From: an uncultured Candidatus Saccharibacteria bacterium
Lineage (GTDB): Bacteria > Patescibacteriota > JABMPQ01 > JAQVVF01
NCBI GenBank assembly: GCA_964574655.1
Contig: CAZNOH010000003.1
Location: 58,149 to 122,148 of the forward strand
Direction: 5' to 3'
Length of the DNA stretch: 64,000 bases
Made by a program: the position numbers and the translations under genes. Under the pieces are notes generated by a model. The model ran no database searches, was not told where the DNA came from, and saw only the letters and a program-made list of their open reading frames with translations. Shown here one piece after another: positions 3,468-56,125 of this stretch (within the stretch, counting starts at the first letter, position 1; every line of letters starts with the position of its first letter).

Positions 3468-3550
3468 GCAAATGAATTATGAATCAAGAATAATGAATTA
3501 TGAATCTTTTTCGACTTTACAAACTTTATAACTTTAAAAACTTTATAAAC

Positions 3551-4429
3551 TCACAACAATACCAAAATTATTCCCATTATAACTAAAGCAATTCCCATAA
3601 TCAATTTTAATGTCTTGAGTTTTGATTCTTGCCACTCTTTCAACACTGCAATCTTTTTTCCAGCTAAAACCAAAATCCAAATTGTTATTAATGGCAAAAC
3701 AAATAATAAGTTATAAAGCAAAAGGTAAAAAATAATTCGCGCAATTCCTAAATTATCATGCATTATCTGAACAGATCCAACATACAAAGGCAAAGAACAA
3801 GGCATTTCAAATAACGTTACTAAAATTCCCAAAATAATCGTTGACGGAATGCTCGCCTTTTCCACAAATTTAGTCAACATCCATCTTCTTTTTTGCGAAA
3901 CTTCCAAAGAAAAACCCTTTCCATGCCACCAAAAATCTTTAATATTAATCAAGCCTGCAACAACAATAAAAAATGCCAAAACATATTTCAGATACAAAGA
4001 AACATCGCCAAAATAAGGCATTGTCACCAAAACATCGATAAATTTATAAAAAAACACACCAACTAAAAAATATGTTGAAAAGACAGTGATAATATAGATT
4101 CCTCCAATTTTCAAAATCTCTTTAAATTTTTTGCCATTATCCTCTTCTTCAGGATGTACAAAAATAATTAAATAACCTAACAACAAAATAATTAATCCAA
4201 TTGCGCATGGATTGATTCCATCAATCAAACCAGCGACTATTACTATTGACAAGGTTAATTGTTCTGCATTCAAATGCAACATTTGCCCAACATCACAACC
4301 AAAAATAACAATTTTTTGCGCCTTACAAGTTGCTTCTGCAGCCAAAGCAAAATTAGAAAAACTAGCAAATAGCAAGCAAGAAGCAATAACTAACAAAATT
4401 ATAAAATTTGTTTTTCTAAAATATTTCAT
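3551..4429 (-). CDS. CcdA/DsbD-family transmembrane thiol-disulfide electron transporter
   Basis: Multi-TM protein with one Cys in each of two half-repeats in a proline context (GINPCAIG and EMPCSLP), as in CcdA. Adjacent to the DsbA-like gene. Confidence 0.55.
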   Translation of the reverse strand: MKYFRKTNFIILLVIASCLLFASFSNFALAAEATCKAQKIVIFGCDVGQMLHLNAEQLTLSIVIVAGLIDGINPCAIGLIILLLGYLIIFVHPEEEDNGKKFKEILKIGGIYIITVFSTYFLVGVFFYKFIDVLVTMPYFGDVSLYLKYVLAFFIVVAGLINIKDFWWHGKGFSLEVSQKRRWMLTKFVEKASIPSTIILGILVTLFEMPCSLPLYVGSVQIMHDNLGIARIIFYLLLYNLLFVLPLITIWILVLAGKKIAVLKEWQESKLKTLKLIMGIALVIMGIILVLL

Positions 4430-4525
4430 AAACTAAAGATATCATAACAATATTAGATATTCAAGAAGCATATTTTTTACTTTTGCCTTGTAACTTTTTA
4501 CTTTTTCTTTTTTAATTTTGCCTTT

Positions 4526-6166
4526 TTATAAAATTTCTTCTCGCTTCTCTTTGATATACACAATCCAGTCTTCTATTATTTCAATCATTAATTGAAATGG
4601 GGCTTCAATCAAAAAATCCATTACAAAAATAAAAATATTAACTCTGGAAAAAGTATTTGAAATCCATCTGCCAAACCTTAAAATTGGCAAAGTAAATATA
4701 TCAAACAAAAAAGTAATAACATTCTCTTTTTCAGTTTGCAAGATTAATTCTCTAACAGATTGCCTCAATGACACTCCAAAGAAACAGACAATGCTAAATA
4801 ATACGATGAAAATAGCGCCTGAAACATAATTAAAATCTAATCTATGCAATGCCCAAATTATAAAACCAAAAGTCATTGAAAAAACAAGCAAATATAAAAA
4901 GGAAAAAATAAAATTAAAAATAAATTTTCTTTTTCTTAATAAAACTCTTTCCCTAACAAATATTTTTCTTTTTACATCATCATAAACAATTTCTTTTATG
5001 CCAGAAACTATTTTATCAGAATTCTTTTCTCCTGGCACTCGCACCAACAAAGCAACTAAAAATATCAAAAACGGCGGAATCAAAATATTTACTGTAAATG
5101 CCGAATAATTTATCAACGAAAGAAAAATCAATTCATAAGGCACTTCAATAATCAATGCCAACAAAATTTTTGTAAGCAAAATATAAATAACAGCCCGAAC
5201 AGCCTTGCGTCTTAATTTTATCTTAAATTCAGCATATTTTTCTAAACACACAGAACGCAATTTATCTTCCAAAGACAGAATATCAGGTGGCTGAAAAGGA
5301 TCAAATTCAATTGATGGTTCTGGCGGATTCAAAAATAATTCCTTTGCATTTTCCGGACTTTGATCAATAAAGCTTTTTAAAATTACAAATGGCGCAACGT
5401 ATTTTCTGACTAGCTGATATAATCTGTTCGACATTTTATGATTCAACTGTCGATCAATTCCCTCTTTTATTAAATCAATATCATTAGCAATTTTTTCAAT
5501 TGTCAAATATGACGGCTTATCAAACCAATTCGGAAAATGCAATCTAAACAGATGATAAGACAATATATCATCGTCTGACTTAATCAACGCGCGATGTATT
5601 GCTATATAAACTTGAATATCTTTTTCTCCTTCTCTAATTCCTTGCTGTTCCAAAGAAATCTTTTTCGCCAACATGTCATACATGCAATTCACCAAGGCTG
5701 ATTCCACTATTTTTGGTTTTAACAAATTATCAATTTCACAAGCTGCAATTGCCAACAACCACTCAATTTTTTTCGATGATCCAGGAACTTCTCTCTTTGC
5801 CAATTGATTGTTTAAGAAAATATATTTATTCAAGATACCGCCGATTTCATAAACAGTTTCTTCAGTCACGCTCATGTTTTCAAGATGCCTTGATCTGATT
5901 AGCTCTCTAACTAATGAATCTGCAATATTCCAAGCCTTGTTTTTATGGACAAATCTTCTTTTTATAATTCTCAAAATAGCGCTTTTTCTCAACAAATGTT
6001 CCTCCCGATAATCAACAGCTGTCCTAATTTTTTCATAGAAAAAAGACAGTGTTCCAATCACCTCATTGACTTTTATCAACGTTCCTTTTTTTTTCTTAGC
6101 CAAAGATGAAGCTTCTAAAAAAGCATCAAACAAATCATCGGCCCTTTTGGATAACCTTTTTTGCAT
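4526..6166 (-). CDS. Hypothetical protein with soluble N-terminal region and C-terminal polytopic membrane domain
   Basis: Long ORF, uniform AT-rich coding composition. About 300 aa hydrophilic then about 5 predicted TM helices. No recognisable motif. Confidence 0.5.
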   Translation of the reverse strand: MQKRLSKRADDLFDAFLEASSLAKKKKGTLIKVNEVIGTLSFFYEKIRTAVDYREEHLLRKSAILRIIKRRFVHKNKAWNIADSLVRELIRSRHLENMSVTEETVYEIGGILNKYIFLNNQLAKREVPGSSKKIEWLLAIAACEIDNLLKPKIVESALVNCMYDMLAKKISLEQQGIREGEKDIQVYIAIHRALIKSDDDILSYHLFRLHFPNWFDKPSYLTIEKIANDIDLIKEGIDRQLNHKMSNRLYQLVRKYVAPFVILKSFIDQSPENAKELFLNPPEPSIEFDPFQPPDILSLEDKLRSVCLEKYAEFKIKLRRKAVRAVIYILLTKILLALIIEVPYELIFLSLINYSAFTVNILIPPFLIFLVALLVRVPGEKNSDKIVSGIKEIVYDDVKRKIFVRERVLLRKRKFIFNFIFSFLYLLVFSMTFGFIIWALHRLDFNYVSGAIFIVLFSIVCFFGVSLRQSVRELILQTEKENVITFLFDIFTLPILRFGRWISNTFSRVNIFIFVMDFLIEAPFQLMIEIIEDWIVYIKEKREEIL

Positions 6167-6264
6167 ATCAAACTATTTTAATTAAAAATACTTATTTAGT
6201 CAACAAAAAAGACAGACTTTTCAAATCCATCTTTGACTTTATAAACTTTATAACTTTATGAACT

Positions 6265-7509
6265 TTAAACTTCGATATATCCCTTCTCCCAATTATCAAC
6301 AATCATTTTTTCCATCATTGTCTTACCACCCACATATTCATAAAAAATCTTATTCCATAAAGACTCTTGATGATGATAAAGATATTTGATCATTTCTTTC
6401 TGCTTTGCCAATCCCATCTCATTATCAATTAAATTAAAACCGATCAACTCATCCTCTAAATCTCCCTTGAAAAAACCTCCTACATAATTTAATCCTTCCC
6501 AAAAAGTGAACTCCAGTCCTTTATATTTAGCATCTAACTTTACCAATGATTCTTCAGCCTTAGACCAATGTATTGTTTCAGGATTGACATGTGGCTCAAA
6601 TAATCTAAAATCATTCTCATCGTCTTTTGCTAAATATCGCTGTACTATTCTAAAAAAACCGAATGGCAGTTTCTCGCTCAAAACATCTCCTCTTATTAAA
6701 GAAACTAAAGTCTCGCCAAAAACACTGTTTTCTTTGTGTTTTTCCAATAATTTAGTATAAAAAGGAATTTCGTTTAAATAATGCAAAATTAAAGAAAACA
6801 TTCTCAAAGTCTCGCCGCAAATTCCAGAAGAAATTGGAATAATAAAAATTAATCCTAATTCTTTCAAATGGCTGAGATTGTGATATTTTTTCTTAACAAA
6901 TTTCTGAGCAACTTTTAACCATTTTACATCTAGTACCATAATCTCAATATCACGGTATTCAAAATCAGAAGGTTTCAATTTTAAATAAGCCTTGCTAAAA
7001 ACATTATTCATCCAATCCCTTGATTCTACAAATCTTAATGCAGCGTAAACTTCTCTCCAATCTTCTTTTTCCAATAATTCTCGGGTGTTTTTATATTTTA
7101 AAGCCGACAAAATATTAGGTGGCGGATTTGTCAACAAAATTTCTTTTGCTTTATCTTTTTTAATAAAAAAACCATTCTTTTTATCAGTTATTTCTAAAGC
7201 CAAAGCTATTGCCTGATGACAACTTTCCTTTTTCTCACAATTAGGCTCGCCTAGTATTTCAAACAAATCCTTGTCATCTTTTTTCAATTTAGTAATAATT
7301 GCTTTATGGACATCAATCGCTTTGCTATTTTTAGGTACTTTTAAAATTCCCAATAGCTCTTTTATTCTAAAATTATTTTCAGCAATAATTTTATCCAAAA
7401 CCAAAGTTTTATTAAACTTCTTTTCCATCAATTCAACAGTTTTTAGAACAGTAATCTTGTCGGTCCTCAGAATTCTTGCAATTTTTTCAGCTGATATATG
7501 ATTAGCCAT
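6265..7509 (-). CDS. Hypothetical protein (414 aa, start trimmed to ATG outside the palindromic repeat)
   Basis: Long ORF. The track start at 7551 lies inside repeat element A. The internal ATG at 7507-7509 (MANHISAEK...) is more plausible. No recognised domain. Confidence 0.45.
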   Translation of the reverse strand: MANHISAEKIARILRTDKITVLKTVELMEKKFNKTLVLDKIIAENNFRIKELLGILKVPKNSKAIDVHKAIITKLKKDDKDLFEILGEPNCEKKESCHQAIALALEITDKKNGFFIKKDKAKEILLTNPPPNILSALKYKNTRELLEKEDWREVYAALRFVESRDWMNNVFSKAYLKLKPSDFEYRDIEIMVLDVKWLKVAQKFVKKKYHNLSHLKELGLIFIIPISSGICGETLRMFSLILHYLNEIPFYTKLLEKHKENSVFGETLVSLIRGDVLSEKLPFGFFRIVQRYLAKDDENDFRLFEPHVNPETIHWSKAEESLVKLDAKYKGLEFTFWEGLNYVGGFFKGDLEDELIGFNLIDNEMGLAKQKEMIKYLYHHQESLWNKIFYEYVGGKTMMEKMIVDNWEKGYIEV

Positions 7510-8738: not shown

Positions 8739-9749
8739 TTATTTTATTAACGCTCCAGACTTAATTACATGTTCTACCAAAGTCACCGCGTATCCCCACT
8801 CGTTATCATACCATGCCATAACCTTGACCAAATTTCCTCCAACAACTTTTGTAAGCTCTGCATCAACAATGCCAGCATGTACATTACCAATTACATCATG
8901 CGAAACAATTGGATCATTTGAAATCTCTAATAAATCTTTCCATCTGTCTTCTCTGCTTGCCTCTTCCAAAATATTGTTAACTTCTTCAACTGTTGTATCT
9001 CTTTTAGAAATAAAAGTCACATCTGCAATAGAACCGCAAACAACTGGTACGCGAACAGCAATACCATCAAAATTTCCCTCTAAATCTGTTATTGCTTCAG
9101 TCGTTGCTTTTGCCGCACCTGTTGTTGAAGGAACTAAATTTTGCGCTGCTGCTCTTCCTCTTCTCATGTCTTTCAAATCAGCCGGGCCATCAACAATGCT
9201 TTGTGTCGCAGTATAAGCATGAGTCGTATTTAGTAAAGCTTTTTCAATTCCCAATTTATCATTCAAAATTGCCACGACTGATGCAATTGCATTCGTTGTG
9301 CAAGATGCATTGGAAGTAATCACATCATCTTTCATTCTTTCCTCGTTTACTCCTAACAAAACAATCGGCACCCCATTTTTGGAAGGAGCAGAAATTACCA
9401 CTCTTTTTGCGCCAGCATCAATATGCATTTTTGCTTTTTCCTTTTCAGTAAATACGCCAGTACACTCAACAACCACATCAACATTCAATTGCTTCCATGG
9501 CAATAATTTAGGATCTTTTTCTTGGGTAAATTTTACTTTCTTTCCTTCTACAACTAAATTACCATCAGCGACTTCAACCTTCTTGTCATATTTTCCATAA
9601 ACAGTGTCGTTCTTTAAAAGATAAGCTAAATTTTCTAGATCGCCTAAATCATTAATTCCTACAATCTCTATTTCATCCTGGCGTTCAAACGCAATTTGAA
9701 AAAACTGTCGGCCGATTCGACCGAAACCATTGATTGCGACTTTTGTCAT
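8739..9749 (-). CDS. gap: Glyceraldehyde-3-phosphate dehydrogenase
   Basis: NGFGRIGR NAD-binding motif, active-site SNASCTTNA, full-length 336 aa. Confidence 0.9.
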   Translation of the reverse strand: MTKVAINGFGRIGRQFFQIAFERQDEIEIVGINDLGDLENLAYLLKNDTVYGKYDKKVEVADGNLVVEGKKVKFTQEKDPKLLPWKQLNVDVVVECTGVFTEKEKAKMHIDAGAKRVVISAPSKNGVPIVLLGVNEERMKDDVITSNASCTTNAIASVVAILNDKLGIEKALLNTTHAYTATQSIVDGPADLKDMRRGRAAAQNLVPSTTGAAKATTEAITDLEGNFDGIAVRVPVVCGSIADVTFISKRDTTVEEVNNILEEASREDRWKDLLEISNDPIVSHDVIGNVHAGIVDAELTKVVGGNLVKVMAWYDNEWGYAVTLVEHVIKSGALIK

Positions 9750-10042: not shown

Positions 10043-11560
10043 ATGAAAATAAAAACAACAATTATAATCTTGTTATGTTTTCTTTTTTCTCCTTTATTAA
10101 CATTAGCTTCAGAAGCTTCAGAAAATTTATTATCAGCTAAAGCATATAACTTCACTTGGCCACTTGATAAATGGTCTTTTGATATGGAAGGTCAAAAATT
10201 TGGGACTATCAGAGGTAACGGAATTTACCATCTCGGAGACGACATCGGCATTTCTGCTGGATCACCAGTTTATTCTGTTGCAACTGGAACTGTTAAAAAT
10301 ATTGGCGTTTACACTGATTTTGGCACTGTTATTTTAATTGAGCATACTCTTTCAACTTCAGAAAAAATTGTTTCTTTATATGGACACTTAGGAAGAGATG
10401 TCAAAGTTAAAGAGGGACAATTCGTTAACAAAAATCAAGTAATCGGATATATCGGCACAACCGATGTCAATGGAGGCTGGTCTGAACATCTCCATTTCGG
10501 AATTAGAAAAGGAGCTTTTGTTAATGTTGAAACTAATTGGGTCTACTGGGGATTGGGTTCCAAAAATAAATTAAACGACTGGTATAATCCAACCGAATTT
10601 TTATGGTATAAAATCAACAATCCAGACATTATCACAGGAAAAATAATTACTGCACCAAATTATCCAGGTCGATCGCACATCAGAATTTTTAACGAAAAAG
10701 GTTACGCAATTCCATCTTTTGACTTCTTTGCCTATCCTCCAAAAAATAAAAAAGGATCTCAAATTTCTTTAGGCGATATTAATAATGACAAACAGCAAGA
10801 ATTGATTATCAGCTCAAATAGTTACAAACCTCAAATAAAAATTTTTAGTAAAAATTCTCAAGACTTTATAACAAAATTCAAACCATTCTCAAAAAAATAC
10901 AATGGACAAATAAATCTAATAACAACAGATCTAAATTCAGACGGTCAAGATGAGATCATTGCCACAACTGGTCCAAGCCAATATCCAAAAATAAAAATAT
11001 TCTCTTACAACACAACAACAAATCTCTTTGAAGAAAGTATCAAGATTCCAAGTCCATTCAGCCGAAAAATAAAATGCGGGATTAACTTAACCGTCATTGA
11101 TTTAAATAATGATAACAAAAAAGAAATTCTTGCCACTCCAGCCAACAACAAAAAATCAGTTTTAAAATATTGGAATGGATCAACTTGGAAAAAATTAAAA
11201 TCAAAAATCTTCAAAAAAAATAATGCAAAATTAACAACTGGAGATATCGATGGAGATGGTATTGAAGAAATAATTGCCGGTTCTCAATCTGGCAAAAGAT
11301 CAGAAATAAAAATTATTAATAAAGATGGACATATCAGAAAAAAAACCATTAAACCATTCAAATATAATTACAAAAACGGCATAAATATTACCACAACTGA
11401 CTATAACAATGATGGAATTTTGGATATCGTCGCTTCCGTTGCAAAATCAGGCTTACCAAAAATTAAAGTCATTCAATACAAACAAAGACTTGTTTTAGCT
11501 TCTTTTTTAGCTTATAATGAAAATTTCATGGGTGGAGTAAATATCATCGGAATTAAATAA
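10043..11560 (+). CDS. Secreted M23-family metallopeptidase fused to FG-GAP/VCBS-like repeats
   Basis: Signal peptide. M23 motifs YHLGDDIG and HLHFGIRKG. C-terminal repeats of the form D(L/I)N(N/S)DGxxEIIA(T/G). Confidence 0.75.
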   Translation: MKIKTTIIILLCFLFSPLLTLASEASENLLSAKAYNFTWPLDKWSFDMEGQKFGTIRGNGIYHLGDDIGISAGSPVYSVATGTVKNIGVYTDFGTVILIEHTLSTSEKIVSLYGHLGRDVKVKEGQFVNKNQVIGYIGTTDVNGGWSEHLHFGIRKGAFVNVETNWVYWGLGSKNKLNDWYNPTEFLWYKINNPDIITGKIITAPNYPGRSHIRIFNEKGYAIPSFDFFAYPPKNKKGSQISLGDINNDKQQELIISSNSYKPQIKIFSKNSQDFITKFKPFSKKYNGQINLITTDLNSDGQDEIIATTGPSQYPKIKIFSYNTTTNLFEESIKIPSPFSRKIKCGINLTVIDLNNDNKKEILATPANNKKSVLKYWNGSTWKKLKSKIFKKNNAKLTTGDIDGDGIEEIIAGSQSGKRSEIKIINKDGHIRKKTIKPFKYNYKNGINITTTDYNNDGILDIVASVAKSGLPKIKVIQYKQRLVLASFLAYNENFMGGVNIIGIK

Positions 11561-11685
11561 CCAAGATACAAGAAACAAACAATAACCAATAACCAAACTC
11601 CAATAACCAAACTCGTCGCATTGTCCGTCGGTTTGGTTATTGGTTATTTTAATTTGAATATTGTTTGTTTCTTGTATCTTGGTTA
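11561..11685. repeat. Palindromic MITE-like repeat element, copy B
   Basis: Near-perfect inverted repeat with ~58-bp arms (ccaagatacaagaaacaaacaataaccaataaccaaac ... RC). Between the M23 gene and tsaD. May double as a terminator. Confidence 0.65.
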
Positions 11686-11700
11686 TTAGCAATTTATCAA

Positions 11701-12744
11701 ATGCTAATTCTCGGAATCGACACATCCTGTGATGACACTTCGGCCGCCATCGTAAAAGACGGTTCTTTTGTTTTATCAAATATTGTTTCTTCGCAAACAG
11801 AAATCCACAAAGAATTCGGCGGCGTTGTCCCAGAAGTTGCCGCCCGAAAACATATTGAATTAATAATTCCAGTCATCAAACAAGCAATTTCAGAAGCAAA
11901 AATAACAAAAGAACAATTAGATTTAATCGCCGTAACAAATGGTCCAGGCTTAATAACTTCTTTGATGGTTGGAATTGATACTGCGAAATCATTAGCCTAT
12001 TCTTTAAATAAAAAAATAATTGCCATTAATCATCTTGAAGGCCATATCTATGCAAATTGGCTTTATCCGCCTAATATCCGAATTTCCGAATTTCCGAATT
12101 TCCAGTTTCCCATTTTATGTTTAATAGTCAGCGGCGGTCACACAGAACTTGTTTTTATGCCTAACCATCTTAAATACAACGTCATTGGTCAAACCAGAGA
12201 TGATGCTAGCGGAGAAGCATTTGATAAAGTTGCCAAATTATTAAATATTGGCTATCCTGGCGGACCAATTGTTTCCAAATTAGCAAAATCAGGCAATGAC
12301 AAAGCCTACAATTTTCCACGTCCGATGATTAATTCAAAAGATTATGATTTCAGTTTTTCAGGACTCAAAACAGAAATTTTTAGGCTAACTCAGAAATATA
12401 AAAAATTTAACCAGCAACAAATCAATGATATCTGCTCTTCTTTTCAAAAAGCAGTTGTTGATACCTTAGTTTTCAAAACAATCAAAGCTGCAAAAGAATA
12501 CAAGATTAAAACAATTATGCTTGGAGGCGGAGTTTCCGCAAATAAACTATTGCGTCAAGAACTCAAAAACAAAATTGAAAAAGAAATTCCCAATTCTCAA
12601 TTCTCTCTTCTCAATTCTCAATTCACGTCTGACAATGGTGCGATGATCGCTGCTGCCGCTTATCAACATGCCATCGTAAGGAACAAAAATTTTTGTTCCT
12701 TACCGTACAAAAAAATAATTCCAGAAACAAATTTAAACCTATAA
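11701..12744 (+). CDS. tsaD: tRNA N6-adenosine threonylcarbamoyltransferase TsaD (Kae1/Gcp family)
   Basis: LGIDTSCDDTSAAIV N-terminus, HLEGHIYAN, SGGHTEL, GGGVSAN. Start moved to ATG 11701 outside the repeat element. Contains in-frame 8-mer x3 repeat at 12078-12103. Confidence 0.85.
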   Translation: MLILGIDTSCDDTSAAIVKDGSFVLSNIVSSQTEIHKEFGGVVPEVAARKHIELIIPVIKQAISEAKITKEQLDLIAVTNGPGLITSLMVGIDTAKSLAYSLNKKIIAINHLEGHIYANWLYPPNIRISEFPNFQFPILCLIVSGGHTELVFMPNHLKYNVIGQTRDDASGEAFDKVAKLLNIGYPGGPIVSKLAKSGNDKAYNFPRPMINSKDYDFSFSGLKTEIFRLTQKYKKFNQQQINDICSSFQKAVVDTLVFKTIKAAKEYKIKTIMLGGGVSANKLLRQELKNKIEKEIPNSQFSLLNSQFTSDNGAMIAAAAYQHAIVRNKNFCSLPYKKIIPETNLNL

Positions 12745-13319: not shown

Positions 13320-14207
13320 TTATTTTAATGACTTTTTACGCGCAACCAAATAAAAACTAATTATTATTAATAATAACACAAAAAATATAATTATATAAAT
13401 CAGAGAATTATTTTCTTCTTTTATTTTATCGAAATTTACTTTTTCAATTCTTTCATTTCCAGCTTTGTCAATTACTTTCACTTGTATTTCTTGATTCAAT
13501 CTTTGATTTTTCAATACATAAGGGCTTTCTGTTATTACAAAACTGCTATCTCCTTCTTTTACTTCATAATGATCAATTCCAGAATTCTTGTCAGAAGTCG
13601 CAAAACTTAAAAAATATTTTCCATTAAACAATCCATCTTTTTTGCTCATTTCAGGCTTGAAAGATTCAGGCAAAATAGTATCGCTCTTAATATCCGTCTC
13701 AATTCCATTTGAAGTTCTGCTGATTAAAAAATCTAAATTAGAAAAAACAATATTTGCCAGCTCGCCATTCTCGTTATTTTTTGCAATTTGCGAATTATCT
13801 TCAAAAAAAATATTTGCTGTTCCATCTTTAATCGCTTCAAAAGTCAAACTGCCAAGCAAGCCATTTTTTCCTTCATAACCATTAGCAATAATTCCTGCCA
13901 AATTTATTTTAGTATCATTGCTTTGAGGCCTAACAATCCAAAAATTTATTAAAGAATTTCCATCGCTAAAATCTTTATATTTCAATGTTTCAGAAGAAAA
14001 ACCAACATTTAAATCAACAGCATTTATTGCTTCAAATCCTGTATCCAAAAAAACTTTAGCAGAAAAAAAATCTGTAATTCCAATTTCTTTTTTATCCAAT
14101 TCAAAATACAATCTTGCTGCCTTCACGCCATTGCCAAAAAACAAGCATAAAAACATGCTTATTAAAACTAATACGAAAAAAGATTTTTTTTTACTTTTTA
14201 CTTGCAA
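13320..14207 (-). CDS. Membrane-anchored cohesin-like domain protein (signal peptide, C-terminal TM anchor)
   Basis: FSAKVFLDTGFEAINAVDLNVGFS...LLGSLTFEAIKDGTANIFF cohesin-like segment. C-terminal hydrophobic helix followed by RKKSLK. Apparent TTG start overlaps a dispersed repeat motif. Confidence 0.4.
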   Translation of the reverse strand: MQVKSKKKSFFVLVLISMFLCLFFGNGVKAARLYFELDKKEIGITDFFSAKVFLDTGFEAINAVDLNVGFSSETLKYKDFSDGNSLINFWIVRPQSNDTKINLAGIIANGYEGKNGLLGSLTFEAIKDGTANIFFEDNSQIAKNNENGELANIVFSNLDFLISRTSNGIETDIKSDTILPESFKPEMSKKDGLFNGKYFLSFATSDKNSGIDHYEVKEGDSSFVITESPYVLKNQRLNQEIQVKVIDKAGNERIEKVNFDKIKEENNSLIYIIIFFVLLLIIISFYLVARKKSLK

Positions 14208-14241
14208 CTTTTTACTTTTTAATTTTTAATTTTGACTTTTC

Positions 14242-21558: not shown

Positions 21559-24051
21559 ATGTTAAAAAAATACAACATTTTAGAACAGGAACAAAAATGG
21601 CAGAATTTTTGGGATCAAAACAATATTTACAAATATGATCCCTTTTCAAAAAAGCCAATTTTCTCAGTTGATACTCCTCCACCATACGCATCTGCCGCCC
21701 ATCTTCATGTTGGCCATGCCATGTCTTATACTCAAGCCGAATTCATCATCCGTTTCAAACGCATGCAAGGCTATAATGTTTTTTATCCAATGGGTTTTGA
21801 TGACAATGGCTTGCCAACTGAAAGATACGTTGAACAAAAATACAAAATTGCTGACAAAACCAAAATTTCCCGCGAAGAATTTATCAAATTATGTTTGCAA
21901 GAAACCAAAGAAGTTGCCAAAACTTATACTTCTCTTTGGAAATCATTAGGCCTTTCAGTTGATTGGTCATTGCTATATTCGACAATTAGTTCAATGTCTC
22001 GCCGTATTTCTCAAAAATCTTTTTTAGATTTATACAAAAAAGACTTGTTAGAACATCGCCAAGAACCAACAATCTGGTGTCCTTCCTGCCAAACAGCATT
22101 GGCCCAAGCTGATCTTGAAGATTCAGAAGAAAAATCCACACTAAATTATATAACGTTCAAACTTAAACACAGAAACACAGAAACACAGAAACATTCTGAC
22201 GCTCCGACGCTCCAAAGCTCCGAAGCTCTCATTGTTGCCACTTCCAGACCAGAATTACTACCAGCTTGTGTCGCCTTATATATCAATCCAGACGACAAAC
22301 GCTACCAAAGATTAATAAATCAAACTGCCATTGTTCCATTATTTAATTATGAAATCGAAATCAAATCTGACCCTTCTGTTGATCCAAAATTTGGCACTGG
22401 CTTAATGATGGTTTGTACTTGGGGCGATTCTGAAGATGTTGCCAAATGGAAAAAAGATCAACTTTCAACCAGACTGATCTTTGATAAATCAGGACACTTA
22501 AATGAAAAAGCAAAACCTTATCAAGGCTTAGCTATTAAAATCGCTCGTATTAAAATTTTAGAAGATTTAAAAAATAAAAATTTATTAATTAAGCAAGAAG
22601 ACATTACTCATGTTTTAAACATCCACGAACGCTGCAAAACTCCAGTTGAATTTTATTTAACAAAACAATGGTTTATTAAAATTCTTGATAATATAGAAGA
22701 TTTCAAAAAACAAGGAGACAAAATAAACTGGTATCCGGTATCAATGAAAAAGAAATATGATACTTGGCTAGATGGATTAAAATGGGATTGGAATATTTCA
22801 AGAGAAAGATATTATGGCGTTCCGTTTCCAGTTTGGTATTGTAGCAAATGTCATGAAACAATTTTGCCAGATGAAAAAGATCTGCCAGTTGATCCAATCG
22901 AAAATGAACCAAAAAATCCTTGCCCAAAATGCCAATCAAATAAATTTATTCCAGAAAAAGATGTCATGGATACTTGGATGACATCATCTTTAACACCTCA
23001 AATCAATTCGCATTGGCAAGAACAAGATGAAAACAAAAAACTTTATCCAATGTCTTTGCGTATTCAAGCTTTTGAAATTATCAGAACTTGGCTTTTTTAT
23101 ACAGTTGTAAAATCTTGGTATCATAAAAAATCTTTACCATGGCAGGATGTCATGATTTCAGGACACGGACTAGACGAACAAGGACGCAAGATTTCCAAAT
23201 CATTAGGAAATTATGAACCAGTTAATAACATCATAAAGCGTTATGGTTCTGATGCACTTAGATATTGGTCTGCAGGATCAAATCTTGGCAATAATTTAAG
23301 ATATAAGGAAGAAGAAGTTAAAGACGGCAAAAAATTAATTACCAAACTTTTCAACGCCAGCAAATTCGGCTTGATGTTCTTAAATAAGAATTCAGAATTG
23401 AGAATTGAGAATAGAGAATTTTCACCTATCGACATTTGGATTTTATCAAAACTACAAGATACAATTAAAAAAGTTACGCAATATTTCAATGATTACGAAT
23501 ACTCGAAAGCAAAGAAGGAAGTCTACAATTTCTTTTGGAAAAATTTTGCTGATAACTATATTGAGCTTGCCAAATCAAGACTCTATAATGATGAAAATAA
23601 GGAAGCTAAACAATCAGCTCAAGCAACACTTTATATTTGCTTAATAAATATTTTAAAAATGTTTGCACCAATCCTTCCACATATTACTGAAGAAATCTGG
23701 CAAGCGATAAAACAATTAAACAATGAAACAAAAAAACAATTTAACAATTTAACAATTGAACAATCAATCCACATCAGTTCTTGGCCAAAACAAGAAAACA
23801 AATTTATCAACAAAAAAATGGAATTACTTGGTGATTCTATTGTAGAAATTTTAAGTTTAGTTCGAAAAACAAAATCAAATGCCAATCTGGCAATGAATAA
23901 AGATATTAAAGAAATAATTATTGACTCTAAAGAAAAAGATTTAGAAAAATTCTTTCCAGATCTAGCCTCAGCCACTCATGCAGAGCAAATTTCTTTCGGA
24001 ACTGGTGATCAAAATATTGATGATAATCTGAAAATAAAAATTATTTTATAA
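21559..24051 (+). CDS. valS: Valyl-tRNA synthetase (class I aaRS)
   Basis: PPPYASAAHLHVGHA (HIGH-type), RFKRMQGYNV, VDPKFGTG, WCPSCQTAL, DWNISRERYYGVPFPVWYC, KISKSLGN (KMSKS). Best match to the ValRS pattern but IleRS/LeuRS not fully excluded. Carries two in-frame tandem-repeat insertions. Confidence 0.7.
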   Translation: MLKKYNILEQEQKWQNFWDQNNIYKYDPFSKKPIFSVDTPPPYASAAHLHVGHAMSYTQAEFIIRFKRMQGYNVFYPMGFDDNGLPTERYVEQKYKIADKTKISREEFIKLCLQETKEVAKTYTSLWKSLGLSVDWSLLYSTISSMSRRISQKSFLDLYKKDLLEHRQEPTIWCPSCQTALAQADLEDSEEKSTLNYITFKLKHRNTETQKHSDAPTLQSSEALIVATSRPELLPACVALYINPDDKRYQRLINQTAIVPLFNYEIEIKSDPSVDPKFGTGLMMVCTWGDSEDVAKWKKDQLSTRLIFDKSGHLNEKAKPYQGLAIKIARIKILEDLKNKNLLIKQEDITHVLNIHERCKTPVEFYLTKQWFIKILDNIEDFKKQGDKINWYPVSMKKKYDTWLDGLKWDWNISRERYYGVPFPVWYCSKCHETILPDEKDLPVDPIENEPKNPCPKCQSNKFIPEKDVMDTWMTSSLTPQINSHWQEQDENKKLYPMSLRIQAFEIIRTWLFYTVVKSWYHKKSLPWQDVMISGHGLDEQGRKISKSLGNYEPVNNIIKRYGSDALRYWSAGSNLGNNLRYKEEEVKDGKKLITKLFNASKFGLMFLNKNSELRIENREFSPIDIWILSKLQDTIKKVTQYFNDYEYSKAKKEVYNFFWKNFADNYIELAKSRLYNDENKEAKQSAQATLYICLINILKMFAPILPHITEEIWQAIKQLNNETKKQFNNLTIEQSIHISSWPKQENKFINKKMELLGDSIVEILSLVRKTKSNANLAMNKDIKEIIIDSKEKDLEKFFPDLASATHAEQISFGTGDQNIDDNLKIKIIL

Positions 24052-27138: not shown

Positions 27139-27164
27139 TCGCACCTGCCTGCCGGCAGGCAGGA
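27139..27164. repeat. GC-rich perfect palindrome CACCTGCCTGCCGGCAGGCAGG, copy 1
   Basis: Same palindrome recurs at 46951-46976. Directly downstream of gdh, so it may act as a terminator. Confidence 0.5.
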
Positions 27165-27177
27165 ATGATTAGTGATT

Positions 27178-28455
27178 TTATTTCTTTATCTTTTTTATTA
27201 TTCTTTCTACTGCCAACGCATCCGCTCCCATCCTCAAATCAACCTTATATTTCTCACTCATCTTCCAAACATCGGCAAAAGATTTTTTCATTGTCTTTTC
27301 TAGCTTTTTATTTACATCAACAAGACTCCAATATTTTCCATCCATATTTTGTAACCATTCAAAATAAGAAACGGTCACGCCTCCAGCATTTGCCAAAATA
27401 TCAGGAATTACCACTTTTTTCTTTTTAAACAAAATTCTGTCAGCATCAGGAGTTGTTGGACCATTTGCCATTTCCAAAATAATATTAGCTTTTATTCTAT
27501 TGGCGTTATCTTTCGTAATTTGATTTTCAATAGCTGCTGGCACTAGAACATCAACATCTAATTCTAACAATTCCGCATTTGTAATCTTCTGTGTATCAAC
27601 TAGACCACTAACACTACCTGTCTTCTCTTTTTGTTTCATTACCTTCTCAAGATCAATACCATCTTTTTTATACACTCCACTTCTTGAATCAGAAACCGCG
27701 ACAACAACGAACCTTTTGTCTTTAGAAATAATTTCCGCAATATTATATCCTACATTTCCAACACCTTGCACTGCAACAGTTATTTTTTCATTTGCTTTAA
27801 TCTTTTTCAACGCCTCGTTTAATGTAAAATATCCGCCTAAAGCAGTTGCTTCCGTTCTCCCCAAAGATCCGCCCTTAGATATTGGCTTTCCAGTAAAAGT
27901 TGGTAGCCACTCATTATCAGCGATTTTTGAATTTTTACTTGTAGCTTTTACCTTTTTACTTTTAACTTTTAACTTTTTAAATTCATCGCTCATCCATGCC
28001 ATTATTTCCGGAGTTGTATTTACATCAGGTGCTGGAATATCCTTATTTGGTCCGATACAATCAAAAATTGCCTTAACATAACCTCTTGATAAATTTTCCA
28101 ATTCTTTTTTTGATAATTTTTTTGGATCAACAATTACTCCGCCTTTTCCACCGCCCAAAGGAATGTTTGCAACTGCGCATTTCATTGCCATCCAAAAAGA
28201 CAAAGCTTTTACTTCAAAATCAGAAACTTCCTGATGAAATCTAATACCGCCTTTATACGGGCCTCTTGCAGAATTATATTGCATTCTAAATCCTTGAAAC
28301 ATCCTAATCTTTCCATCATCCATTTTCACTGGGAAATTAACATAAACTGCTCTTTCTGGTTTTGATAAAATTTCCAAATAGGTTTTATCCAACTTCATCA
28401 AATCAGCTACTCTCCCAAGCTGAACTAATGCATTCTCAAAAACATTTTCAGACAT
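27178..28455 (-). CDS. gdhA: NAD(P)-specific glutamate dehydrogenase
   Basis: KGGIRFH, GGGKGG, GVGNVG Rossmann motif. Contains an in-frame insertion (KKLKVKSKKVKATSKNSKIADNE) encoded by a copy of the dispersed TTTTTACTTTT-type motif. Confidence 0.9.
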   Translation of the reverse strand: MSENVFENALVQLGRVADLMKLDKTYLEILSKPERAVYVNFPVKMDDGKIRMFQGFRMQYNSARGPYKGGIRFHQEVSDFEVKALSFWMAMKCAVANIPLGGGKGGVIVDPKKLSKKELENLSRGYVKAIFDCIGPNKDIPAPDVNTTPEIMAWMSDEFKKLKVKSKKVKATSKNSKIADNEWLPTFTGKPISKGGSLGRTEATALGGYFTLNEALKKIKANEKITVAVQGVGNVGYNIAEIISKDKRFVVVAVSDSRSGVYKKDGIDLEKVMKQKEKTGSVSGLVDTQKITNAELLELDVDVLVPAAIENQITKDNANRIKANIILEMANGPTTPDADRILFKKKKVVIPDILANAGGVTVSYFEWLQNMDGKYWSLVDVNKKLEKTMKKSFADVWKMSEKYKVDLRMGADALAVERIIKKIKK

Positions 28456-28528
28456 ATTGCTTTAGTTAATTAGTTAATTAGTTAATTAGTTTATTAGTAA
28501 TTAGGTAACAATGGAACAATTTAACAAT

Positions 28529-28723
28529 TTATTTCTTGTTGATCTCATCAATTATAGCCTGGATCTTTTTTTCATCAAGTCCATGTGCTAAAGAACCCTG
28601 TTCGATTGTTTCTCCATGAGCCATCAAACAACCAACGCAATGCATTCCATGCTTAACTAAAATATCAACCGTTTCTGGTTTTTCTTCAACTGCCTTGCTG
28701 ATTAAAGTATCTTTTGTAATCAT
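28529..28723 (-). CDS. DUF1858-type small redox-disulfide protein (hybrid-cluster-protein-associated domain)
   Basis: 64 aa with MHCVGC motif in the DUF1858 context (KHGMHCVGCLMAHGETIEQG). Confidence 0.55.
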   Translation of the reverse strand: MITKDTLISKAVEEKPETVDILVKHGMHCVGCLMAHGETIEQGSLAHGLDEKKIQAIIDEINKK

Positions 28724-34425: not shown

Positions 34426-34448
34426 TAATTTTGTTGTTTAGTTATTTA

Positions 34449-34480
34449 TCACCCCGCAGGGTGATCACCCTGCGGGGTGA
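34449..34480. promoter_or_regulatory. Perfect 32-bp palindrome TCACCCCGCAGGGTGATCACCCTGCGGGGTGA in a divergent promoter region
   Basis: Two 16-bp half sites with no spacer, between the aminotransferase start (34201, minus) and the uppP start (34500, plus). Confidence 0.5.
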
Positions 34481-34499
34481 TAATTTAGTTATTAATTTA

Positions 34500-36075: not shown

Positions 36076-36135
36076 AAATTTTTATTTTTTACTTGCAACT
36101 TTTTACTTTTTAATTTTGACTTTTAATTTTTTCAA

Positions 36136-42116: not shown

Positions 42117-42225
42117 TTACAAATCAAAAAAATCTTGTTATATTATCACATTAAGATTTCAGTAATTTTTTTTAATTTTTACTTGGAACTTTTTACTTTT
42201 TAATTTTTACTTTTACCTTTTAATA

Positions 42226-46080: not shown

Positions 46081-46112
46081 TATTTTTACTTTTTAATTTT
46101 TACTTTTTTAAC

Positions 46113-49378: not shown

Positions 49379-49428
49379 ACAAAAAAATCGCCAGACAGCG
49401 ATACTTTTTACTTTTGCCTTTTTACTTT

Positions 49429-50835
<1,407 letters not shown>

Positions 50836-54895: not shown

Positions 54896-55036
54896 AACAA
54901 AAATAGTTTAGGCTTCAAAAAACTTAGCTTTATTTTACCTTATTTTTAACAATTTAACAATTGGGCAATTCAACAATTCAAGATATTAAAAAAGAGCATA
55001 AATTGCTCTTACTTTTTACTTTATAACTTTAAAACC

Positions 55037-56125
55037 TTATAAACTTTCGTACACGCTCAACGTCTCTCTCGCACATTTTTCCCACGAAAAGTTACTAGCT
55101 TGTTTTAATCCATCAGCCTTCATCATTATTTGCTTCTCGCCATTATTTAAAACATCAATAATATTTTTTATCCATAATTCTTTATTTTCCGGATCCAACA
55201 AGATTCCGGCATTACTAACAACTTCCGGCAACGATGAAGAATTTGAAGAAATAACTGGCACACCGCATTTCATTGCTTCCAAAATCGGCAAACCAAAACC
55301 TTCATAAATTGATGGAAACGCAAACAATTTAGCGCCATTATATAAATATGGCAGATCCAAATCATCAACGTAATTCGTAAAAATCACTTTATCTTTAATC
55401 CCTAAATTTTCAATTTCACGAAACAAATTTTCATATCTCCAACCTTTTTTTCCAGCAACAACAAGTTTCAAATCACCAATACCCGAATTTCCAAATTTCC
55501 GAATATCTTTTACCACATCAGCGAAAACTTTAACGAAAAATTCCAAATTCTTTCTCGGCTCCAAAGTTCCAACATTCAAAATATAATCTCCGCTAATTTT
55601 ATATCTTTTCTTCACTTGTTCAATTTTATTTAAGTCAGTTATCACTTTAAATTCATCGCCAGCTGCTTCATAAATTACTTTTATTTTATTAGAATCTAAT
55701 CCCAATTTTTCAACCAAATCTTTTTTTGCACTTTCTGAAATCGTAATATAATAATCAGCAAATTTATACGACCAAGGCATTAATTTTGTAAAATAAAATC
55801 TTGAAGCTCTGGAAAAATTTTCCGGATAAATTAATGGAATAATGTCATGAATTGTCACAACCTTTTTAAATTTTCCAAATCTTGGCACCGAAAAACAAGT
55901 TTTATGAATAATATCAGCCTTAACTTTTTTTGCTTTTTTAACAAAACCAACTTGATCCCACCAAATTCTTTCATAAGTTCTCAAGTCTTTTTCTTTTCCT
56001 GAATCAATTAAAAAATATTCATTTTGAGTATCAATTTTTTTCAAATTTTCAACCAAATTTTTAACGTAAAAACCAAAACCGCTCTTCTTCCCTAACATTG
56101 TTTGTGTATCAATTACGATCTTCAT
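55037..56125 (-). CDS. GT4-family glycosyltransferase (GT-B, group 1)
   Basis: EGFGLPILEAMKCGVPVISSNSSSLPEV. Confidence 0.8.
   Translation of the reverse strand: MKIVIDTQTMLGKKSGFGFYVKNLVENLKKIDTQNEYFLIDSGKEKDLRTYERIWWDQVGFVKKAKKVKADIIHKTCFSVPRFGKFKKVVTIHDIIPLIYPENFSRASRFYFTKLMPWSYKFADYYITISESAKKDLVEKLGLDSNKIKVIYEAAGDEFKVITDLNKIEQVKKRYKISGDYILNVGTLEPRKNLEFFVKVFADVVKDIRKFGNSGIGDLKLVVAGKKGWRYENLFREIENLGIKDKVIFTNYVDDLDLPYLYNGAKLFAFPSIYEGFGLPILEAMKCGVPVISSNSSSLPEVVSNAGILLDPENKELWIKNIIDVLNNGEKQIMMKADGLKQASNFSWEKCARETLSVYESL

Follow-up and report, generated by a model that had tools for sequence, protein, structure and literature searches.

TsaD is a core housekeeping enzyme of the t6A pathway, and the tsaD gene is essential. 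A tsaD gene that carries three tandem copies of an 8-nucleotide unit within its reading frame raises the question of how such a repeat arose and whether it does anything for the protein, the mRNA or the cell. The gene lies in a 64,000-nucleotide stretch of DNA, called the window here, from an uncultured Candidatus Saccharibacteria bacterium.

11701 to 12744, plus strand: tsaD, 347 amino acids, ATG at 11701, intact, identified by profile matches, invariant residues and an AF2 model.

The identity of the gene, proposed in an initial annotation that was made from the letters alone, is borne out by all the family resources consulted. The ORF matches PF00814 (the Pfam TsaD family) at 6e-94 and 315 bits (cut-off 24.8) and TIGR03723 at 416 bits (cut-off 296), and its PDB match is the TsaD of T. 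maritima (6nak_B, 5e-85). All of the family-invariant residues are kept: C10, D11, H111, H115, S144, G146-T148, D167, D168, E172, D311 and N312. The metal-binding HxxxH motif (H111, H115), the SGGHT loop (S144-T148) and the Asp of DNxAMIA (D311-N312) fall in invariant alignment columns. The AF2 model, built on an alignment of 73 relatives, has a pLDDT of 94.7 and an ASKHA fold, with a TM score of 0.90-0.93 to solved TsaD structures (3zet_B/4ydu_A). On the strength of the ORF, the family scores, the invariant residues and the confident model, the gene is intact and its repeat is translated. In a one-genome-per-species scan, the nearest relatives of this TsaD are encoded by Patescibacteria (CPR) MAGs; its own 90% cluster is a singleton.

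12078 to 12103, plus strand: octamer array, three copies of CCGAATTT followed by CC, found by direct reading, TRF and a perfect-run scan.

The letters of the array are CCGAATTT CCGAATTT CCGAATTT CC. In the register of the relatives, the same DNA reads AATATCCG AATTTCCG AATTTCCG AATTTCCA, then GTTTCCC. TRF extends it to 12073-12103 (period 8, 3.9 copies, 95% matches), and the perfect-run scan gives 12077-12103 with 3.4 copies. The array is in frame in tsaD, where the translation runs ...NWLYPPNIRISEFPNFQFPILCL... and the array itself codes for IRISEFPNF; the in-frame reading ISEFPNFQ of the initial annotation agrees with the ORF translation. The triple 8-base repeat in tsaD is therefore confirmed as real. 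It consists of head-to-tail copies of a short unit above chance, both by TRF and by the four perfect period-8 repeats of the window, of which 30 shuffles gave none. With at most two mismatches allowed, the 16-mer CCGAATTTCCGAATTT matches the window five times where 0.11 matches were expected, and five matches were never reached in 100 shuffles. A mobile element of the RPE or MITE-like type was rejected as the source of the 8-mer: the window holds no dispersed copies of the 16-mer with common flanks or element ends, the matches elsewhere being only two overlapping imperfect ones at 55483-55506, and the flanks of the array are native tsaD codons.

12061 to 12111, plus strand: codons of the variable loop, residues 121-137, YPPNIRISEFPNFQFP, delimited by AF2 secondary structure and the loop-length spectrum.

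The AF2 model shows residues 121-137 as coil that links the HxxxH helix (111-120) to the strand at 138-143. Residues 121-130 have a pLDDT of 86, and among the lower-confidence blocks only the C-terminal tail is lower. The HMMER alignment of the window TsaD with that of T. maritima (6nak_B) has an exact 8-residue gap at the octamer site. Among the 73 relatives, the segment from H115 to L141 measures 15-59 aa with a mode of 19-20; in the window it measures 27. The net gain is +7 aa (21 nt) over the nearest array-free relatives and +8 aa (24 nt) over the modal length and T. maritima. The array is confirmed to code for part of a coil loop whose length exceeds the usual one by 7-8 residues. That canonical TsaD has a shorter loop was already stated in the initial annotation, and the structural check that it proposed gave coil of lowered pLDDT in an otherwise confident, superposable model. 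Judged by secondary structure and pLDDT, this appears to be a mutation-tolerant, harmless-looking surface loop. Other parts of that annotation fared less well. Because the net gain is 21 or 24 nt according to the reference chosen, the account by which three 8-mers add exactly 24 nt is approximate at best. The proposed selection for frame-preserving copy number amounts to no more than the trivial point that an essential gene is not seen with out-of-frame alleles. Equally long, repeat-free loops in unrelated orthologs, which had been named as grounds against the proposal, are not the rule either: many orthologs have long loops, and most of these bear repeats.

Comparison of the loop DNA of 64 orthologs places the octamers in a wider context. 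Different 7-mer arrays occupy the loop in many lineages:

Ortholog loop: (AAATCCG)x4 then (AAATTCC)x4.
Ortholog loop: (AAATCCC)x3.
Ortholog loop: (AATTTCC)x3.
Ortholog loop: (AAAATCC)x4.
Ortholog loop: (AAATCTC)x3.
Ortholog loop: (AAAATCA)x4.

Within the closest TsaD family, taken as 60-80% identity, the loops are as follows:

L072 and L073: (AATTTCC)x5 and x4, respectively.
L074: (AATTCCC)x2 (AATTTCC)x2.
L065: AATTTCCG AATTTCCG AATTTCCC, a nested 39-nt GC-rich insert, then AATTTCCA ATTTCCA.
L068: (TAATATC)x3 in place of the octamers.
L066 and L069: short canonical loops without an array.

The AATTTCC unit holds the native Phe-Pro codons TTTCC. Since (AATTTCC)n is found in the family and AATTTCCG in the window and L065, the 8-nt unit derives from the family-wide 7-nt unit: the parent array at the family level is (AATTTCC)n, and the window and L065 hold the derived AATTTCCG. 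L065 comes from an independent JGI metagenome assembly, and its TsaD and that of the window are about 77-81% identical. The octamer array is inherited, being common to the window and L065, and can be lost cleanly. Presence and copy number thus differ among relatives at one site, and the loop that follows the HxxxH helix of TsaD has repeatedly been a hot spot for arrays and palindromes.

12585 to 12624, plus strand: heptamer-periodic stretch AATTCCC AATTCTC AATTCTC TCTTCTC AATTCTC AATTCAC, coding for EIPNSQFSLLNSQF, found by TRF.

The initial annotation also listed a second low-complexity insert (IPNSQFSLLNSQF). Its heptamer repeats are real, with a TRF consensus of AATTCTC at 12585-12624 (period 7, 5.7 copies, 84% matches) and a period-7 match fraction of 0.71. 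The five subclade members all have a fraction of 0.51-0.73, and in L072-L074 no such periodicity is visible at this site. The claim of an insertion fell. The stretch directly precedes DNGAMIA, and each of its residues has a counterpart in the canonical LPxTxFHFPDLKF(C)xDN segment found in more distant relatives; there is no gap here in any of the 15 aligned relatives, and the segment is only 2 aa longer than in T. maritima. Its product is well modelled, a strand/turn region with a strand at 300-302 in the AF2 model. An insertion at 12585-12624 is ruled out by the gap-free relatives and the canonical correspondence.

Palindromes and hairpins form the other class of repeat in and around the gene.

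12676 to 12703, plus strand: perfect 28-nt palindrome with halves GTAAGGAACAAAAA and TTTTTGTTCCTTAC, coding for VRNKNFCSLP, in the C-terminal tail of tsaD.
11555 to 11690, no strand assigned: intergenic hairpin of about 130 nt with arms of heptamers CAATAAC / TTGGTTA, found by RNA fold.

Where the 28-nt palindrome lies, the protein differs from those of L065/L066 by a symmetric +2/+2 aa, and L068 has a degenerate copy of the palindrome (11/14); the pLDDT in this tail is 73-84. The intergenic hairpin (-64.5 kcal/mol, z = -15 by RNA fold) fills the spacer between an M23 peptidase gene and tsaD. In L065 and L068 other heptamer-armed hairpins occupy this spacer, and in L066 the peptidase gene abuts tsaD without one. 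Perfect stems of 8 bp or more, collected from 65 tsaD genes, concentrate at two positions of the alignment, the first of which is the variable loop. In the loop hairpins, the 5' arm consists of conserved codons, such as GCTAATTGGC for Ala-Asn-Trp, and the 3' arm is their reverse complement. Exactly at the Leu-x codon boundary, 9 or more of 12 mirrored positions form Watson-Crick pairs in 13 of 55 CPR tsaD genes; at other codon boundaries this is so in 0.12%. The arms co-vary between lineages (GCT..AGC, GCC..GGC, GTT..AAC, GTC..GAC, TGG..CCA, TTT..AAA), so that where the native Ala, Val and Asn codons change synonymously, the inserted arm changes its amino acids to match. In these relatives a 7-mer array usually follows directly after the loop hairpin. 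The loop of the window (12040-12125) has no significant fold (-7.4 kcal/mol, z = +0.89 by RNA fold), and its 5 of 12 mirrored pairs compare with a null of 3.1 +/- 1.6. These values rule out a hairpin in the window's own loop, and a hairpin remnant (GCCTAATAT in place of the expected GCCAATTTGC) is too weak to claim. Either the window lost the loop hairpin or it never had one.

The loop array is not an isolated repeat. When perfect tandem repeats of at least 2.6 copies were counted, the window had seven at period 7 (0.03 expected) in addition to the four at period 8, and none at period 6 or at periods 9-15. Across 60 Patescibacteria loci (393 kb), period 7 accounted for 51 repeats where 0.2 were expected and period 8 for 4 where none was expected, while periods 9-12 gave none. 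A small control of eight non-CPR loci (48 kb) had 0 arrays. All of the loci compared, CPR and non-CPR, were centred on tsaD. There is thus a strong, period-specific excess of 7-nt arrays, and less so of 8-nt arrays, in this genome and in Patescibacteria loci generally. TRF reports 26 arrays of period 7/8 in the window. Sixteen of them fall in non-coding DNA, which makes up 11% of the sequence, a skew consistent with selective removal from genes; the other 10 are in frame: 2 in tsaD, 4 in a class-I aminoacyl-tRNA synthetase (aaRS), 1 in glutamate dehydrogenase (GDH) and 3 in a Wzy_C-like membrane protein. Near-identical units are also seen at three loci of the window, 12078, 50178 and 55483.

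The same repeats account for length change between relatives. L066 and L069 are 93% identical at the nucleotide level over 19.5 kb, and their indels of at least 5 nt consist almost entirely of 7/8-mer arrays or hairpins. One of them, 42 nt long, is a clean presence or absence: the aaRS gene has a double 8-mer array in the window, L065 and L069 and lacks it in L066. Arrays and perfect palindromes are therefore the source of most indels between orthologs. Contigs from three independent samples are 100% identical to L069, arrays included, so the arrays are reproducibly assembled and not hypervariable on that time scale. The tsaD repeat is one case of a lineage habit of 7- and 8-base repeats and perfect hairpins in genes and spacers.

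The units themselves are non-random in sequence. Those of the type A-run/T-run/C-run(/G) make up 39% of 75 arrays against 3% expected, and they are free of stop codons in all six frames. Stop-codon avoidance was rejected as the sole cause of this likeness: because roughly one random unit in two already lacks stops on one strand, it accounts for only part of the bias.

The reading that best fits these observations is that the octamer triple is a long SSR that arose by replication slippage in a tolerant surface loop and was inherited within a Patescibacteria subclade, to which a probability of roughly 70% is given. Slipped-strand mispairing with a preferred slip of about 7-8 nt would make the arrays. 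The preferred length has been hypothesised to reflect the DNA stretch that contacts the polymerase active site, heptamer SSRs being over-represented in bacteria (PMC4692102). Intramolecular template switching would make the palindromes and keep their arms identical; PMC13100816 describes template switching that homogenises and expands inverted-repeat arms, and PMC11724301 describes foldback inverted duplications. Purifying selection would then pass net lengths that are a multiple of three, in loops or tails, and only units that lack stop codons in all three frames. The peptide IRISEFPN would be a by-product rather than a designed function. Since the slip of a single 8-mer unit shifts the frame of an essential gene, multi-unit events or compensating changes are required. 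The non-random units and their recurrence at three loci are not predicted by purely local slippage and count against it. In E. coli, single-strand exonucleases hold down slippage and template-switch errors. The loss of single-strand exonucleases in a reduced genome is a candidate for the unifying cause.

Four other origins were weighed against slippage in a tolerant loop. That the repeat is an assembly or sequencing artefact is hardly credible. Short tandem repeats can mis-assemble and the window protein is known from one contig only, but L065, assembled independently, has the octamer array at the identical codon position, comparable arrays are identical over three independent samples, and a 26-nt repeat is far below the length of a sequencing read; the intact ORF and high-confidence fold also argue for a real sequence. 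A gapped flank pattern, run against metagenome contigs for copy-number variants in the window species, gave 0 matches. A phase-variable contingency locus, in which the gain or loss of one 8-nt unit toggles tsaD off and on, is very improbable. As in the contingency loci of Haemophilus, Neisseria and Campylobacter, the unit lies inside an ORF and is not a multiple of three, so a one-unit change shifts the frame, and this genome has similar arrays in surface-polysaccharide genes (Wzy_C-like and GT4), which are classic targets. Unlike those loci, tsaD is a housekeeping gene for t6A rather than a dispensable or surface gene, it has just three perfect copies, and its copy number is about equal in a lineage whose TsaD is only about 77-81% identical. 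The arrays of a sister species of the clade do not vary over the three samples, and the ValRS/IleRS-type aaRS and GDH genes hold equally many arrays, which also speak against switching.

Two further explanations assign a function to the insert. It could be an adaptive protein insertion with a lineage-specific role, for example as a contact site for TsaB, TsaE or tRNA within the reduced t6A machinery of CPR, given that the site directly follows the metal-binding HxxxH helix and that loop insertions are very common in the TsaD of Patescibacteria. The peptide, however, is set by the nucleotide repeat. Close relatives have IRISEFPN, QYLISN or nothing at this position, the insert is absent in relatives of 80% identity, and the loops vary from 15 to 59 aa without a conserved motif. 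A functional protein loop is unlikely because the peptide tracks the DNA repeat and differs or is absent in such close relatives, and we rate this explanation as improbable. Somewhat less remote, and still unlikely, is that the array is the remnant of a nucleic-acid module of hairpin and heptamer array, kept for DNA or mRNA structure within tsaD. The mirrored pairs at an identical codon boundary in 13 of 55 Patescibacteria genes, the co-variation of synonymous native changes with amino-acid changes in the inserted arm, and the array that mostly follows directly after the hairpin all point that way. Against it, the window lacks significant structure (5/12 pairs, z = +0.9), the hairpin is missing in many lineages, and there is no U-tract or other recognisable signal. 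Template-switch homogenisation, moreover, explains the perfect stems equally well with no function needed. A functional nucleic-acid element is possible in the hairpin-bearing relatives, not in the window sequence itself.

The array itself falls within a known class. In a survey by Mrazek et al. in 2007, as summarised in PMC4692102, long SSRs of 5-11 nt, and heptamers above all, are over-represented in bacterial genomes. Like the heptamer SSRs of Xanthomonas (GGGAATC) and Nostoc (GGGGA(T/C)T) and the cyanobacterial STRR, the arrays described here have a dominant period of 7 with neighbouring periods normal, run from a few to about 8 units, vary in length and sequence between close relatives at a given site, and are in some cases inverted pairs able to form hairpins. 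The units read on the other strand are likewise G-run/A-run/T-run, GGAAATT here compared with GGGAATC and GGGGATT, a likeness that serves as a lead and not as a test. In Xanthomonas and Nostoc the arrays are G-rich and are reported from intergenic DNA, whereas those in Patescibacteria are AT-rich with varied units, 10 of the 26 in the window are in frame in genes, some of them essential, and the tsaD unit is 8 nt long. The tsaD array belongs to the known heptamer-type class of long SSRs; what is unusual is its 8-nt unit and its place, in frame within an essential gene of a CPR genome.

Other systems share some of these features. The Rickettsia palindromic elements (RPEs), which Ogata et al. 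reportedly described in 2000, are said to be in-frame selfish DNA in conserved genes. As with RPEs, a reduced genome here has in-frame DNA of non-coding type placed where conserved proteins, essential ones among them, have tolerant surface regions. In RPEs, a single element of 100-150 bp is dispersed in copies, whereas the tsaD array is local and has no dispersed full-length copies; the T5AC element in GDH (27925-27979) is a closer analogue within the window. In Borgs, the repeat units in ORFs have lengths divisible by three, unlike the units of 7-8 nt here, where translation passes through every frame in turn and gives the peptide the same period as the nucleotides. PMC9879509 describes Borg tandem repeats that create disordered protein regions, and to that extent the two are alike: fast-evolving, independently arisen tandem nucleotide repeats add low-complexity protein loops. 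The palindromes resemble quasipalindrome or short-range template-switch mutations, in which perfect inverted copies of adjacent native sequence are made and their arms stay identical (PMC13100816, PMC7954356 and PMC11724301). This likeness fits the 28-nt palindrome at 12676-12703 and the loop hairpins of the relatives. Those template-switch cases come from yeast, apes and E. coli reporters, and are not known as a recurrent in-frame feature at a single codon boundary of an essential bacterial gene. The full-text literature searched gave no specific description of heptamer repeats or in-frame palindromes in CPR/Patescibacteria, nor of the wider pattern seen here.

A broader proposal, which we put forward tentatively and consider doubtful as a whole, is that Patescibacteria have a lineage-wide period-7(8)/palindrome process that is their main source of indels and writes loops into essential enzymes, that the TsaD loop keeps a co-varying perfect hairpin of 9-14 bp, and that the window array is its decayed, hairpin-less remainder. 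In this proposal the hairpin arms co-vary at the cost of the encoded amino acids, which would imply either a functional nucleic-acid element in an essential ORF or continuous homogenisation of the arms by template switching.

On its own, the repeat is a tolerated loop insertion, and its value lies in the wider pattern. It suggests that indel evolution in these ultra-small, repair-poor bacteria is dominated by non-triplet 7/8-nt slippage and template-switch palindromes, both of which reach core enzymes, namely TsaD, a class-I aminoacyl-tRNA synthetase and glutamate dehydrogenase. The pattern is relevant to how new protein loops originate and to the question why the proteins of CPR are often longer than others and more difficult to align. 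Anyone annotating MAGs, or calling frameshifts and "pseudogenes", should take it as a practical warning. The old question of why bacteria favour heptamers among long SSRs gains a natural study system here. The co-varying tsaD hairpin is a clean test case for telling selection on structure from mutational homogenisation, and the broader pattern merits a dedicated survey.

Short-period arrays recur in several genes of the window, including a class-I aminoacyl-tRNA synthetase gene.

21559-24051, plus strand: class-I aminoacyl-tRNA synthetase gene, with 7/8-mer arrays at 22165-22228, 23387-23420 and 23710-23764

The synthetase gene carries four in-frame 7/8-mer arrays, (AAACACAG)3.6, (GCTCCGAA)3.5, (AGAATTG)4.9 and (AAACAATT)6.9. 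The first array pair forms a 14-amino-acid insert that is found in the window and in its close relatives L065 (an independent JGI metagenome assembly) and L069, and is cleanly absent from a further close relative, L066. L066 and L069 are 93% identical and differ by the presence or absence of this insert. Of 75 perfect period-7/8 arrays from the window and 393 kb of Patescibacteria (CPR) loci, 39% are built from units that combine one run each of A, T and C, G being optional; 3% would be expected. Such units contain no stop codon in any of the six frames, and they are similar to the heptamers in Xanthomonas and Nostoc, which have the form G-run/A-run/T-run.

Arrays are also present in intergenic spacers.

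3514-3551, 6236-6272 and 55018-55047: (ACTTTATA)n arrays in three spacers between minus-strand genes
28462-28531: (TTAGTTAA)6 and (TAACAATT)3, upstream of the glutamate dehydrogenase (GDH) gene

On the gene strand, the (ACTTTATA)n arrays read as TATAAAGT repeats and may be promoter-like. In addition, a dispersed T-rich element of ~50 nt, made of TTTTTAC heptamers (approximately TTTTTACTTGCAACTTTTTACTTTTTAATTTTGACTTTT), occurs in at least seven copies.

4474-4528, 14188-14240, 27925-27979, 36079-36132, 42169-42222, 46083-46108 and 49402-49451, T-rich on the plus strand: copies of the TTTTTAC element

The T-rich strand is the plus strand in every copy, whichever way the neighbouring genes run. 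Short intergenic spacers hold most of the copies; one lies in frame within the GDH gene, between its two Pfam domains, and encodes the peptide KKLKVKSKKVKA. The element is similar to the Rickettsia palindromic element in being of a dispersed, in-frame type.

Inverted repeats are found within and upstream of tsaD.

11555-11690: 130-nt hairpin with arms of heptamer repeats, between the M23 peptidase gene and tsaD (fold -64.5 kcal/mol, z = -15)
12676-12703: perfect 28-nt palindrome within the 3' end of tsaD, encoding VRNKNFCSLP

The upstream hairpin fills the spacer separating these two genes in the window, and the spacer is missing altogether in L066; L065 and another close relative, L068, have long, unrelated hairpins there. 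The 28-nt palindrome coincides with a symmetric +2/+2 amino-acid difference from relatives, has a degenerate copy in L068, and looks like a template-switch product. At the tsaD codon boundary after ANWL/VNFL/SVFL, perfect hairpins of 9-14 bp occur in 13 of 55 genes (loci L001-L057, L072 and L073). Their arms, which co-vary, consist of conserved codons and an inserted reverse complement, and a heptamer array usually follows directly. Hairpins also concentrate at a second place, close to the PxIxxLA segment (alignment columns 360-379). In L068, ~27 nt (ATCTAATATCTAATATyCAATTTCCAAT, peptide LISNIQFPI) are nearly identical at the loop and pre-DNGAMIA repeat sites of tsaD, which suggests intragenic copying between the two.

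Other palindromes and inserts include GC-rich ones, and those of the window contrast with its AT-rich genome.

27144-27163, window: perfect 20-nt palindrome CCTGCCTGCC/GGCAGGCAGG
34446-34483, window: perfect 38-nt palindrome starting TTATCACCCCGCAGGGTGA
9279-9347, 10358-10456 and 14054-14119, L065: inserts absent from the window and L066

The palindrome CCTGCCTGC/GCAGGCAGG is also in frame within tsaD of two unrelated CPR genomes (L033 and L043), at two differing sites. In L065, one family of in-frame, GC-rich hairpin inserts (TCCGCC GAA stem-loop GAA GGCGGA) is represented both in the M23 peptidase gene and, as a nested insert, in the tsaD array. The C-terminus of the L065 synthetase has another insert, CCACCCgaaGGGTGG, which is in neither the window nor L066.

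Units similar to that of tsaD make up arrays in a surface-related gene.

49429-50835, minus strand: Wzy_C-like gene, with arrays at 49563-49685 and 50178-50208

These arrays, (CAATTTC)4.7, (TTTGGAA)3.6, (ATTCGGA)4.4 and shorter ones, are translated throughout as loop peptides (NSEFRIPNSES; KFQIPNKQQITNSKVQ). For phase variation, the Wzy_C-like gene would be the more plausible candidate.
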